Shown: in pieces, positions 41,199 through 45,129 of the stretch | Position numbering within the stretch: the stretch's first letter is position 1 | Layout: the number at the start of each line of letters is the position of its first letter | Assembly: GCA_963668715.1 (NCBI GenBank) | Contig: OY764960.1 | Coordinates: 2,681,078 to 2,745,077, forward strand | Origin: Bacteroidales bacterium | Lineage (GTDB): Bacteria > Bacteroidota > Bacteroidia > Bacteroidales > VadinHA17 | DNA length: 64,000 nucleotides | Direction: 5' to 3' | Notes under the pieces: model-generated | Databases searched by the model: none | What the model saw: only the letters and a program-made list of their open reading frames with translations | What the model was told of the DNA's origin: nothing | Program-made: the position numbers and the translations under genes

Positions 41199-42731
41199 TT
41201 ATTCTTCCTGCTTTTCATCTGTAGCCATTTCCCTTACTATTTTGGTGACGGATCTGAAATCTATCTTACCCGTACCCATCATCGGAAGCTCTTCGATCAT
41301 TACAAATTCCTTCGGTAATTCAATATTTGAGAGCTCACCGGACAGCTTTTTAAGAATATCCTTTTTATTTATTTCCCTTGTAATGGCTGCGACAATAGCT
41401 GAGCCTTTCAGTTCATCCTCTACATCCACTACACAACAGGATATATCCTCCGGCAGTATTTTTTCAAGTACGTCTTCTATTTTGACCAGGGAGATCATCT
41501 CTCCTCCGATCTTGACAAACCTTTTAAACCGGCCTGCATGCCAGAGATAGCCGTCCTCATCAATTCTGCCCATATCCCCGGTATCATACCAGCCGTTTTT
41601 AAAGACAGCCTCATTGGATTCGGGATCATTATAATAACCCTTCATCACTATATCGCCTTTGACCAGTATCTTGCCGGTTTCATCAGGACCGCATTCTTTA
41701 CCTGTATCAATATTCTCAATCCTGACCTGTACTCCCGGAATAATTTTGCCTATACTACCGGGCTTGTTAAACTCATGTGTATTTGTGGAAATAACAGGCG
41801 ATGTTTCGCTGGTCCCATAACCTTCAAGCAGAGTAACTCCGTGCTTTTTTTTCCACCCCTCACGTAATGCATCCGGACATTTGTCAGCCCCGGCTACCAT
41901 TATCCTTAACGATTTGAAATCACCCGGTTCTGATTTTTGCAGGTAACCCCAGTAGAAGGTTGGTGTTCCTACAATAACGGTAGGCCTCTCCTCACGCGCA
42001 ATATTGGATATAGTCTGAAAATCAAGCGGGTTTGCATAAGTTATCATCGTCATACCCTTCAATATTGGCGTCCAGAGGTTAACGGTAAGTCCGAATATAT
42101 GGAAAAATACAAGAGTGGCAAACATTATATCAGTTTCGAGCAGCCCCAGATGTTTATCGTAGCCAACTATATCGGATATTATATTCTTATGCGTAAGCTG
42201 AACCGCTTTCGGATCTTTTTCGCTTCCACTGGTAAATAATATGGCTGCAGTATCATTCTCATCTGTCGCGGGCAGGCCCTTAAGGATCACGGATGCAGGA
42301 AGCTTTGACCTTAATGCAGCCCTGAGCTTGTCTCCGGTAGTGACACTTTTCATGATATCTTCTATCAGGATCATCCCATCCATAACCGGACAGTCTATTT
42401 TATCAAGCAGGGCCCTGGAGGCTATTATAGTTCTGAAATTGCATTTTTCACGGGAATGTTTTACATTAGCTTCAGCCCCGGTCGAATAGTTAATGTAAAC
42501 AGGGATTCGTCCGCTCATCAGGGCAGCCAGCGAAGCCAGGGTGCATCCGGCAGAAGCAGGTATCATGATACCTATAAAACCCTTGTCGTATTTATTGAAT
42601 TTAGAAGCAAGTATCAATGATACTATTAATGCTTTTGAATAAGTAACATTTGTATTGGTCGCCTTGTCAATAATAGCAAGCTTCTTTGAAAGTCTTTTTG
42701 CATTCCTGACGAAACTGTGATGAAGTAACAT
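41199..42731 (-). CDS. AMP-binding acyl-ACP synthetase (Aas C-terminal-like)
   Basis: ILFTSGSEKDPKAVQLTH, EGYGTSETSP, YDTGD, GRFKRFVKIGGEMISL, GKIDF. Confidence 0.88.
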   Translation of the reverse strand: MLLHHSFVRNAKRLSKKLAIIDKATNTNVTYSKALIVSLILASKFNKYDKGFIGIMIPASAGCTLASLAALMSGRIPVYINYSTGAEANVKHSREKCNFRTIIASRALLDKIDCPVMDGMILIEDIMKSVTTGDKLRAALRSKLPASVILKGLPATDENDTAAILFTSGSEKDPKAVQLTHKNIISDIVGYDKHLGLLETDIMFATLVFFHIFGLTVNLWTPILKGMTMITYANPLDFQTISNIAREERPTVIVGTPTFYWGYLQKSEPGDFKSLRIMVAGADKCPDALREGWKKKHGVTLLEGYGTSETSPVISTNTHEFNKPGSIGKIIPGVQVRIENIDTGKECGPDETGKILVKGDIVMKGYYNDPESNEAVFKNGWYDTGDMGRIDEDGYLWHAGRFKRFVKIGGEMISLVKIEDVLEKILPEDISCCVVDVEDELKGSAIVAAITREINKKDILKKLSGELSNIELPKEFVMIEELPMMGTGKIDFRSVTKIVREMATDEKQEE

Positions 42732-43130
42732 ATTTTAAAGAATTAATTAATATTTTGCCCCAAAATGTTTGCCAATATAAATAAATAATTTTATTGAGAC
42801 TTAGTAGAAATATATTTTCGAATACCAAAATCTCAATGACCGGTATGGCCATTCAAATATACACTAAATCATGAGAAAAGCAATTGATGGTTTTCGACTG
42901 TATTGAAAACATGATCTTGTTTCAGATTGTCCGGTACTTATTTTTTGAACTTGCCGGGTATTCCTTTTATTCACCGGATGATTATGCCAGTCTGAAAAAC
43001 AAAAAACCAAAATATTAATGTATTTAATTTTTACAGACGGAATACTTGCATAAATAAATAAAAAGCGCAATTTTTGCAGTCAAATATAAGTATTTGTATA
43101 TTATTAATTATAATATTAAATCAGAAAAAG

Positions 43131-43193
43131 ATGCACTATAAAATACTGTCCTTCGAAAATAACAATAATAATTCGGTTGGCTTATTCCGGTGA
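43131..43193 (+). CDS. Putative Asn-rich leader peptide MHYKILSFENNNNNSVGLFR
   Basis: ATG...TGA, five consecutive Asn codons, directly upstream of an attenuator. Confidence 0.75.
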   Translation: MHYKILSFENNNNNSVGLFR

Positions 43194-43250
43194 GGATGGT
43201 ATTTAAAGGAAATAAGGAACCGTTCTCATAAAGGGAACGGTTCTTTTTTT
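43174..43250 (+). promoter_or_regulatory. Attenuator: antiterminator overlapping an intrinsic terminator
   Basis: Terminator GAACCGTTC...GAACGGTTC+T7 (43217-43250); alternative pairing of CGGTT..CTTATTCC (43174-43188) with GGAAATAAG.AACCG (43208-43222). Confidence 0.75.
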
Positions 43251-43268
43251 AATATTAAAACTGTAAAC

Positions 43269-43535
43269 ATGGATGACAGAATGAGTCTTGAGAATCTTTC
43301 AGGGATAAAAGATGCGGAATCCTCCCCATCGGTTGAAGAATTATTCTCAGTTATACGGAATGCGGTAAGTAACGGGATCATAGAGGCTGACGAATTTAAG
43401 GCTTCAGGGATAGACTTTGATGAGATGAGGGAAGATATAGTTATTGAATCGGGTGAAAAGGAAAAGGAAATTATCAGGCGTAATTTCCCGGAAAAACAAA
43501 ATGGTTATCTGGCTGTGCCGAGGATAGTTGACTAG
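43269..43535 (+). CDS. gatC: Divergent amidotransferase subunit C
   Basis: MRED...NFPEKQNGYLAVPRIV C-terminal GatC pattern; upstream of gatA. Confidence 0.7.
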   Translation: MDDRMSLENLSGIKDAESSPSVEELFSVIRNAVSNGIIEADEFKASGIDFDEMREDIVIESGEKEKEIIRRNFPEKQNGYLAVPRIVD

Positions 43536-43544
43536 CAAGACAGA

Positions 43545-43614
43545 TGAATGGTGAATGGTGAATGGTGAATGGTGAATAGTGAATGGTGAGAGATGAGAAA
43601 TGAGAAATGAGAAA
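43545..43614 (+). repeat. Ten in-phase heptamers, (TGAATRG)6 then (TGAGARA)4
   Basis: Read directly from sequence. Confidence 0.9.
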
Positions 43615-43722
43615 TGAGGGGTATGGTAGAGACTGTTATAAGCTTTTATTCAATCTCAGCTCGATCTGAAAAAAGCACTAATTATCATAAGATGAGCATT
43701 ATACGGATTATTGATAAATAAT

Positions 43723-45129
43723 ATGGGATCAGATATATTAAGTATACACAGGGCATTGCTGAATGGTGAATACACCTGCAGGGAACTGGTACAGGAAAGG
43801 ATTGACATGCTGTCGGACGACAGGCACAATACCTCAAACAGGGTACTTGTGAACAGTGCTTATGCAATGGCTGAGGCTGTTGACAGGAAGATCGCTGATA
43901 AGGAAGTGACAGGAATTCTGGAAGGTATACCTTTTGGTATTAAGGATGTATTACTTCTTCAGGGTGTGGAAGCAACCGGAAGCTCCAAATTTCTCAAAAG
44001 TTATATCGCACCTTATACGGGGACAGCTATACAAAAACTTCTTGATGCAGGCGCTATACCCATTGTTAAAGAGAATTGTGACAGCTTTGGACATGGCAGT
44101 ACCAATGAAAATTCATATTTCGGACCTGCTGTAAATGCACGGGACGATAACAGGGTAGCCGGTGGATCCAGCGGCGGGTCTTCAGTTAATGTTGCCCTGG
44201 GTCATACTGTCTTTTCAATAGGAGGCGATACAGGAGGATCGATAAGGCAACCTGCAGGCTATAACGGCGTATTCGGACTGAAACCAACCTATGGCAGGGT
44301 GTCGAGATATGGCCTGATGGCATATGCTTCGTCAACAGACTGTGTAGGCCCTATAGCCCGGAGCCCTCAGGATATTAGGATCATCCTCAATACCATAAGC
44401 GGAAAAGACAGCAGGGACCTGACTACAAGGGAATCGACAGATGTTCCTGAATCTGTCTTTGATGCTGACAAAAGCCTTAAGGGATTAAAGGTAGGAGTAT
44501 TCAGAAATTTTATTGAGAACGGCAGCCTGGATAATTCAATAAAAACCGGCTTCACAGGGCTCCTGGATAAATTGGATGATGCAGGTGTGGAAATCAATGA
44601 ACTGGATTTTTTTGATTCCGACCTTCTGGTATCTGCATATTATATACTTGCAATGGCTGAAACGGCATCTAACCTTGCACGTCTGGACGGAACATCTTAC
44701 GGAGAAAGGGAAGACGGGGATGATCTGAGGAGCAGCTCTCTGCTATCCCGGTCGGTTAATCTGTCGGAAGAGACTAAACGGAGGATCATAGGAGGCAACC
44801 AGGTACTGTCCTCCGGTTACTCGGAGCAGATCTACAGTAATGCACTTGCCCTGCGTGCCATGTTCAGCAACAAGTTCGATGAATTATTCGGGATGACAGA
44901 CCTGATCATTTCCCCCGTATCCCCTGCTCCACCACCGGTAATAGGAGAGAGCAGTGATCCCCTGCAGATGTACCTTTCCGATATGTATACCGTTGGTTTC
45001 AGTCTGGGAGGACTTCCTACTCTTACTGCTCCTTTGGGAACCGCGACAGGAATACAGATCACATCAGATAAATGGAGGGAAGAAAGTATTCTCAGATTTG
45101 CATATCAATTATATACCGGAATACAATGA
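43723..45129 (+). CDS. gatA: Asp/Glu-tRNA amidotransferase subunit A
   Basis: GIPFGIKD, AGGSSGGS, GGDTGGSIRQPA, GLKPTYGRVSRYG, DPLQMYLSD. Confidence 0.9.
   Translation: MGSDILSIHRALLNGEYTCRELVQERIDMLSDDRHNTSNRVLVNSAYAMAEAVDRKIADKEVTGILEGIPFGIKDVLLLQGVEATGSSKFLKSYIAPYTGTAIQKLLDAGAIPIVKENCDSFGHGSTNENSYFGPAVNARDDNRVAGGSSGGSSVNVALGHTVFSIGGDTGGSIRQPAGYNGVFGLKPTYGRVSRYGLMAYASSTDCVGPIARSPQDIRIILNTISGKDSRDLTTRESTDVPESVFDADKSLKGLKVGVFRNFIENGSLDNSIKTGFTGLLDKLDDAGVEINELDFFDSDLLVSAYYILAMAETASNLARLDGTSYGEREDGDDLRSSSLLSRSVNLSEETKRRIIGGNQVLSSGYSEQIYSNALALRAMFSNKFDELFGMTDLIISPVSPAPPPVIGESSDPLQMYLSDMYTVGFSLGGLPTLTAPLGTATGIQITSDKWREESILRFAYQLYTGIQ

Follow-up and report, generated by a model that had tools for sequence, protein, structure and literature searches.

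Leader-peptide attenuation follows a textbook model, in which the trp-type logic rests on 1:2, 2:3 and 3:4 pairings of the leader RNA. Characterised leader-peptide attenuators serve a handful of amino acids, mostly in Proteobacteria and Actinobacteria. In Bacteroidota, translation initiation differs and attenuation has been little studied. Here we describe a leader that, on computational evidence, is likely an asparagine (Asn)-responsive, ribosome-mediated transcription attenuator of a gatC-gatA-gatB::aspS operon. It lies in the window, by which we mean the whole stretch of 64,000 nucleotides (nt) that was analysed, taken from contig OY764960.1 of a Bacteroidales bacterium (assembly GCA_963668715.1). 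Positions without a prefix are those of the window.

The trp, his, pheA, thr and leu attenuators of enterobacteria share the design of the window leader. They have an upstream open reading frame (uORF) in which codons for the relevant amino acid stand in tandem, the alternative 1:2, 2:3 and 3:4 pairings, a terminator before the first gene, and a stop codon whose position lets a terminating ribosome block segment 2. The window leader differs from them in its proposed sensing of Asn, in an operon product that would be an aminoacyl-tRNA made by transamidation, and in its Bacteroidota host. There is no sequence relationship between the two, and the Rfam models Phe_leader (RF01859), Thr_leader (RF00506) and Bacteroid-trp (RF01692) gave no window match at E <= 10. 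What is new here is the Asn specificity and the regulated pathway; the mechanism itself is textbook.

The Bacteroid-trp leader (RF01692), a predicted Trp attenuator, shares the phylum and the predicted mechanism class with the window leader, but differs in amino acid, target genes and sequence. It was not found in the window genome. On the side of the pathway, Saad et al. reportedly described, going by the title of their 2012 paper, T-box control of the tRNA-dependent amidation genes in Clostridium acetobutylicum. Read in this way, the indirect Asn-tRNA(Asn) pathway is likewise switched there by a tRNA-responsive leader RNA. The sensors differ: the T-box is an RNA that binds uncharged tRNA, whereas the proposed sensor in the window is a ribosome on Asn codons. 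Leader-peptide attenuation upstream of amino-acid operons has been described in Flavobacterium psychrophilum, in passages that leave Asn unnamed (PMC9723704). The terms asparagine, gatC, gatA, aspS and Bacteroid are absent from the main text of PMC2965389. The original prediction for this locus knew of no characterised Asn leader peptide, and we found none in the full-text literature, whose coverage leaves out most subscription journals.

The leader comprises the following features.

43070-43105, plus strand: putative promoter region, with TTTG-containing boxes that imperfectly resemble the Bacteroidota -33/-7 elements
43131-43193, plus strand: leader uORF; ATG at 43131-43133, 20 sense codons, TGA at 43191-43193; peptide MHYKILSFENNNNNSVGLFR
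43141-43151, plus strand: segment 1, within uORF codons 4-7; pairs with 43194-43204 in the minimum free energy (MFE) fold
43158-43172, plus strand: Asn run, the proposed sensing codons; AAT AAC AAT AAT AAT, five consecutive
43174-43188, plus strand: antiterminator strand put forward in the original prediction; pairs with 43208-43222
43190-43204, plus strand: segment 2; 43190-43199 pairs with 43220-43229 (antiterminator), 43194-43204 with segment 1
43214-43227, plus strand: segment 3, the 5' arm of the terminator, from the fold and the terminator scan
43233-43250, plus strand: segment 4, the 3' arm of the terminator (to 43246) and its T-tract (to 43250)

The 20-codon uORF with its five Asn codons at 43158-43172 and the terminator 18 nt before gatC are both present as originally predicted. 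The terminator has a stem of 14 pairs (43214-43246, six of them G-C) with a loop of 5 nt, and its T-tract runs to 43250, 18 nt short of the gatC ATG at 43269. It is the sole terminator-like site in 42600-43800, where shuffled sequences lead us to expect 0.5 +/- 0.7. The end of the uORF is separated from the gatC start by 75 nt on the same strand, and the Asn run starts 111 nt ahead of gatC. Upstream of its ATG, the uORF reading frame stays open as far as a TTG at 43074. Segment 2 contains the stop codon of the uORF (43191-43193).

The intergenic region 42732-43268 is divergent, with a gene for an AMP-binding enzyme (41199-42731) on the minus strand and the operon on the plus strand. Since only 18 nt lie between terminator and gatC, leaving no room for a promoter, the operon promoter must sit upstream of the terminator, and expression of the operon must therefore pass through the terminator by read-through. 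Boxes at 43070-43105 imperfectly resemble what we take to be the -33/-7 promoter consensus of Bacteroidota.

The leader RNA (43100-43270, 171 nt) folds at -38.5 kcal/mol (z = -3.77), and none of 200 shuffled sequences was as stable. The free fold consists of a long hairpin, in which 43141-43155 pairs with 43189-43204 and encloses the Asn codons, and the terminator. By ViennaRNA, the 1:2 helix (43141-43151 with 43194-43204) has an energy of -8.7 kcal/mol, the 2:3 antiterminator helix (43190-43199 with 43220-43229) -11.4 kcal/mol, and the 3:4 terminator helix (43214-43246) -19.7 kcal/mol. The stretch 43220-43229 corresponds to the terminator 5' arm plus the first two bases of the loop. The uORF, the Asn run, the terminator and these mutually exclusive pairings support the geometry of ribosome-mediated attenuation that the original prediction had recognised.

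We simulated the ribosome in ViennaRNA as a mask of 30 unpaired nt, with segment 4 untranscribed in the stalled case. With each Asn codon in turn in the A site, the MFE structure was the 2:3 antiterminator in five of five cases (-14.2 to -16.5 kcal/mol), spanning 43190-43200 with 43219-43230. A mask on the stop codon hides segment 2, and the antiterminator then fails to form. In the absence of a ribosome, the 1:2 pairing forms, then the terminator. The antiterminator proposed originally, in which the terminator arm pairs with 43174-43188, does exist as a pairing (13 pairs with 43208-43222, with an internal loop and a bulge, -10.9 kcal/mol), but it was never the MFE structure under any ribosome mask. 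Its strand is covered when the ribosome stalls on later Asn codons, and it is usable only for stalls on the first codons. Stalling on the first Asn codons would leave 43174-43188 free, as had been suggested, which makes this pairing a valid second option; the preferred antiterminator at 43190-43200 is predicted for a stall on any of the Asn codons.

These simulations are consistent with the following mechanism. Transcription would start upstream of 43131, and a ribosome would translate the 20-codon uORF behind the moving RNA polymerase. When Asn-tRNA(Asn) is ample, the ribosome would reach the TGA and cover segment 2, so that the terminator forms and the transcript stops before gatC. When no ribosome is loaded, segment 1 would pair with segment 2, again letting the terminator form. 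When Asn-tRNA(Asn) is scarce, the ribosome would stall on 43158-43172, segment 1 would be held open and segment 2 would be free. The free segment 2 would then pair with the terminator 5' arm (43219-43230), and the polymerase would read into the operon. The promoter, the translation of the uORF, the stalling and the conditional read-through are steps that we infer. The product of the operon would be the charged tRNA that the leader senses, closing a feedback loop in which sensor and product coincide. Switching the operon on when Asn-tRNA(Asn) is short is just the behaviour to be expected of a poly-Asn leader.

Alternative pairings by themselves are no proof that a ribosome takes part, and the choice between 2:3 and 3:4 could in principle be made by a translation-independent RNA switch, such as a riboswitch, a T-box-like binder of tRNA or a protein site. 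Only about 60 nt of the leader are non-coding, and a T-box would not fit into this length. The T-box model is absent from the 11 Rfam matches at E <= 10 in 42000-44000, and neither it nor any riboswitch matches the leader at this threshold; the one riboswitch match lies outside it. Together with the codon-wise variation of the flavobacterial leaders described below, this makes such a switch very unlikely.

An attenuator that responds to Asn has, on the other hand, to be weighed against chance. In an A+T-rich sequence, the Asn-coding frame might be an accidental product, and the terminator might be a constitutive or otherwise controlled attenuator, or the end of a small RNA. Sub-threshold Rfam matches to small RNAs do overlap the terminator (best 24.3 bits, gathering score 56), the window leader has no sequence relatives, and the statistics of the single helices are moderate, about 0.02 each. 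A duplex of 43173-43213 with the terminator 5' arm has -16.1 kcal/mol, a value attained by 40 sequences in 2000 when dinucleotides were shuffled and by 11 among 3000 41-mers drawn at random from the genome; the duplex of the 5' part of the uORF with segment 2 (-15.1 kcal/mol) was matched by 35 of 2000 shuffles.

The Asn run itself is rare. Runs of at least five AAY triplets occur six times on both strands of the 4.27-Mb genome (40.3% G+C), and this one stands in frame behind an ATG and directly ahead of the one operon for making Asn-tRNA(Asn) by transamidation. Two of the six are in ATG-initiated ORFs of at most 40 codons, and a terminator follows only the one in the window. The other such ORF, which lies outside the window (C1:3756067, plus strand), has 29 codons, with the five consecutive Asn codons at the C-terminal end and no terminator after them. 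An accidental frame is also hard to reconcile with a stop codon inside the antiterminator strand, with a gap of 18 nt between terminator and gatC that forces read-through, and with an unrelated poly-Asn leader that occupies this position in 39 of 144 homologous operons. We regard an accidental frame as unlikely. The conjunction of leader features ahead of this operon is not plausibly accidental.

In order to compare the operon with its homologues, we used the GatB-AspRS fusion, which belongs to the NCBI-named family 'bifunctional amidotransferase subunit GatB/aspartate--tRNA ligase AspS'. Apart from the protein itself, the best matches share 59-60% identity over residues 300-800. From a scan of genomes (species representatives), the best 80 of 424 relatives were taken, and all 80 are Bacteroidota; gatA precedes the fusion in 80 of the 80 loci and gatC in 77. 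From a metagenome scan, the best 80 of 270 relatives gave 67 operons whose upstream sequence extends for 150 nt or more. The 77 genome loci with gatC and these 67 metagenome loci make up 144 homologous gatC-gatA-gatB::aspS operons. In an even sample of Bacteroidota, the fusion was present in 2 of 400 other genomes.

A poly-Asn uORF leader with a terminator precedes 39 of the 144 operons, 19 of them among the 77 genome loci and 20 among the 67 metagenome loci. In the genome loci, leaders were recognised by a run of at least four AAY triplets within 300 nt upstream of gatC; the other 58 of the 77 have no such run in 1000 nt upstream or in the available contig. The named genome records with the leader include marine Flavobacteriaceae. 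The 39 peptides consist of M, one to three residues, four to seven Asn, sometimes one R, L or T, and the tail N-F-N-N-P-N-F, after which the stop codon follows. In 35 of the 39, the distance from the start of the Asn run to gatC is 113-137 nt; in 16 of the 19 genome loci, 13-20 nt lie between the end of the T-tract and gatC. In five of five genomes tested, the leader motif occurs once per genome, at this operon.

In the consensus fold of these flavobacterial leaders, the Asn codons and the next Phe codon pair with a G-rich stretch just past the stop codon, and this G-rich stretch can alternatively pair with the terminator 5' arm. The masking test gave the same result throughout: the terminator was present in the free fold of 39 of 39 leaders; a ribosome mask on the second Asn codon produced the antiterminator in 39 of 39, and a mask on the stop codon did so in 0 of 39. 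Variation in the run is limited to exchanges of one Asn codon for the other and to whole codons, which suggests that coding is constrained. All 39 leaders keep the ORF intact, 38 of them with an ATG start. These are the properties that argue against a switch independent of translation.

Conservation of the tail N-F-N-N-P-N-F could also mean that the peptide itself matters. Under such an explanation, the uORF would encode a small peptide with a function of its own, or an arrest peptide of the erm/cat-leader type that senses a drug, and the tail would act as a peptide or through the nascent chain. Yet the window peptide has nothing in common with this tail, whose conserved nucleotides are explained by RNA pairing: segment 2 pairs with the Phe codon, and a small hairpin extends across the stop codon. 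None of the downstream genes is a resistance gene. We consider a peptide function highly improbable, the least likely of the explanations weighed here.

The flavobacterial leader has the operon, the position, the spacing between terminator and gatC and the predicted ribosome-dependent switch in common with the window leader. It differs in its peptide, in its terminator and antiterminator sequences, and in the clade of the fusion tree to which its operon belongs. The Asn run itself serves as segment 1 in the flavobacterial leader; in the window, segment 1 lies upstream of the run. We rejected the assignment of the window leader to the flavobacterial family: the 19 flavobacterial leaders from genomes, used as an nhmmer profile, reached it in the window at E = 2.2, over the Asn run only, and it is not one of the profile's matches at E <= 10 in the genome. 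The two types share no detectable sequence similarity. No family in Rfam 15 covers either leader type. The flavobacterial leaders score 27.6-36.6 bits with Phe_leader and Thr_leader (gathering score 55), which is a likeness of architecture and not membership.

In a FastTree phylogeny, the window fusion falls into a clade of nine (Bacteroidales, Marinilabiliaceae and Prolixibacteraceae records; support 100), on a long branch of 0.72. The other eight show no leader, two of them being without upstream sequence and one having only 128 nt of it. The 19 flavobacterial leaders belong to a separate clade of 59 (support 100), within which several gains or losses are needed. One fusion in the tree (L063) has a branch of 6.75, which may be an artefact (N read as A), a frameshift or an assembly error. 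As the two leader types share no detectable sequence similarity and the window operon stands in a leaderless clade, the same design recurs at the same operon. Unrelated sequence with the same design at the same operon is best read, from the sequences compared, as convergence or as divergence beyond recognition. On either reading, recurrence of the design before the same operon is evidence that the design is selected.

The position of promoter-like boxes is also of interest. Leaderless operons share a TAnnTTTG-type box, which we take to be a promoter by its consensus, about 30-40 nt before gatC, and leader-bearing operons have a similar box about 15-25 nt before the uORF start. By these positions, the leader looks like an insertion between promoter and gatC.

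Other RNA elements were noticed near two flavobacterial operons of Polaribacter. Bacteroid-trp (RF01692, gathering score 49) matches L079:7363-7484 and L054:9912-10028 with 52.5 and 50.7 bits, shortly downstream of gatB::aspS, and the distance from leader to leader is about 5 kb in L079 and 7.7 kb in L054. A Flavo-1 RNA (RF01705) lies on the minus strand at L079:9007-9081 (55.1 bits, gathering score 42).

The operon downstream of the window leader consists of the following features.

43269-43535, plus strand: gatC, divergent, 88 amino acids (aa); TIGR00135 at 24.3 bits (cut-off 47.1), no Pfam match
43545-43618, plus strand: two adjacent tandem arrays of heptamers in the gatC-gatA spacer; period 7, 6.4 and 4.6 copies
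43711-45129, plus strand: gatA, likely start at ATG 43723; Pfam Amidase at 369 bits, TIGR00132 at 430.8 bits (cut-off 481.1)
45072/45126-48455, plus strand: fused gatB::aspS, 1109-1127 aa, by Pfam and NCBIfam

Both gatC and gatA stay below their NCBIfam cut-offs, and the GatC match is weak. Homologues of gatC at 34-48% identity hold the same position in 77 of the 80 genome loci. The fused protein has the Pfam domains GatB_N, GatB_Yqey, an OB-fold anticodon-binding domain, tRNA-synt_2 and GAD, and its two halves exceed the NCBIfam cut-offs for GatB and for bacterial AspRS. It is listed at 1109 aa in the protein collection, which fits a start at 45126. The gatC-gatA spacer of the window is unusually long (about 175-187 nt) and filled by the heptamer arrays; in most other loci, no more than about 10 nt lie between the gatC stop and the start of gatA. 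Orthologues of the AMP-binding gene upstream occur in 2 of 15 same-genus genomes (E <= 1e-100), where the neighbours are different genes.

The gene content of the genome bears on what this operon supplies. With both AsnRS (614.7 bits, cut-off 342.6) and GlnRS (709.9 bits, above cut-off) encoded, the cell can use free Asn directly and does not depend on the amidotransferase for Gln. The profile search found no AsnA in the genome and no AsnB at cut-off, the best AsnB match reaching 66.8 bits against 267. This match is a 524-aa ORF (C1:166194-167768) in which an Asn_synthase domain (38 bits, Pfam) but no glutaminase domain was recognised; no other gene resembling an asparagine synthetase was found in the genome. 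A second, ordinary aspS is present at C1:2279975-2281729, and its product is about 40% identical to the fused AspRS. Read from the sequences, the single tRNA-Asn(GUU) has U1-A72 and the tRNA-Asp has G1-C72. On this gene content, the operon probably supplies Asn by transamidation.

A similar set of enzymes has been described elsewhere. Bdellovibrio, Deinococcus and Thermus have AsnRS, GlnRS and GatCAB and no asparagine synthetase, like the window genome, and the combination is given for 18 genera, Bacteroidetes included (PMC4206432). The window genome differs from these bacteria, as far as they are described in the passages concerned, in that its extra AspRS is of the bacterial type (GAD) and fused to GatB. 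Those passages on bacteria without Asn synthetase say nothing about a leader peptide (PMC4206432).

We further compared the genome with 40 relatives drawn from its genus, family and order. AsnB exceeds its cut-off in 24 of the 40 and AsnA in 17, and neither does so in 10. The GatB half of the fusion is covered by none of the listed matches among the 40 relatives. Given that GatB is unseen in these relatives and that most have synthetases, the operon is, judged by gene content, an accessory acquisition in the window genome and probably its route to asparagine. Ten of the relatives (G003, G005, G008, G011, G013, G026, G027, G035, G037 and G038) have no AsnA or AsnB at E <= 1e-30 and no GatB, and several of them are 97-99% complete. 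These ten may be asparagine auxotrophs.

Several points weigh against an Asn-responsive attenuator, beside the moderate statistics of the single helices. The original prediction named the lack of a conserved Asn-rich uORF among homologous operons as a refutation; the comparison does not refute it, since analogous leaders precede 39 of the 144, but the window's own leader sequence was found in none of them. Its nearest relatives, with fusions 61-64% identical, lack a uORF and carry a promoter-like box roughly 30 nt ahead of gatC. The window leader thus has no direct support from conservation or covariation, and conservation backs the principle by analogy rather than this sequence itself. Among the flavobacterial leaders, the RNAalifold consensus of 19 sequences has 3 of 29 pairs that change on both sides, the sequences being too alike for a strong covariation signal. 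At the window leader, the candidate -7 boxes near 43070-43100 match the consensus that we assume only imperfectly.

Further points of this kind concern asparagine supply. The distant Asn_synthase ORF casts some doubt on the operon as the sole route to Asn. We infer that the fused AspRS is non-discriminating; bacterial aspS models do not separate the two kinds. A tie between the leader and the loss of asparagine synthetase was considered and rejected, because the presence of AsnB does not sort leader-bearing from leaderless genomes. The AsnB family exceeds its cut-off in three of five leader-bearing and one of five leaderless flavobacterial genomes, in three of three leaderless Bacteroidales/Marinilabiliales genomes and in none of one Leadbetterellaceae genome. 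AsnA occurs in 1 of these 14.

A wider reading is possible, and we put it forward tentatively, since we hold it slightly more doubtful than probable. The cassette may be a portable, self-regulating module for Asn prototrophy, whose design would have arisen at least twice, in marine Flavobacteriaceae and in the window lineage. In the window genome, it might have been gained by transfer, replacing the synthetases that 30 of the 40 relatives have. Its leader might then be the first Asn-specific leader attenuator and the first to act on indirect aminoacylation.

If the Asn-responsive attenuator is true, Asn would add a new specificity to leader-peptide attenuation, and it would do so in Bacteroidota. 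An operon whose product is a charged tRNA, controlled by a leader that senses this charged tRNA, would be the shortest possible feedback loop. The GatB-AspRS protein is an unstudied enzyme fusion that resembles a hard-wired transamidosome, and the finding would give a handle on it. The 39 flavobacterial leaders provide a seed alignment for an RNA family missing in Rfam 15, in hosts that are genetically more accessible. The finding may also explain how some Bacteroidota get by without asparagine synthetase.

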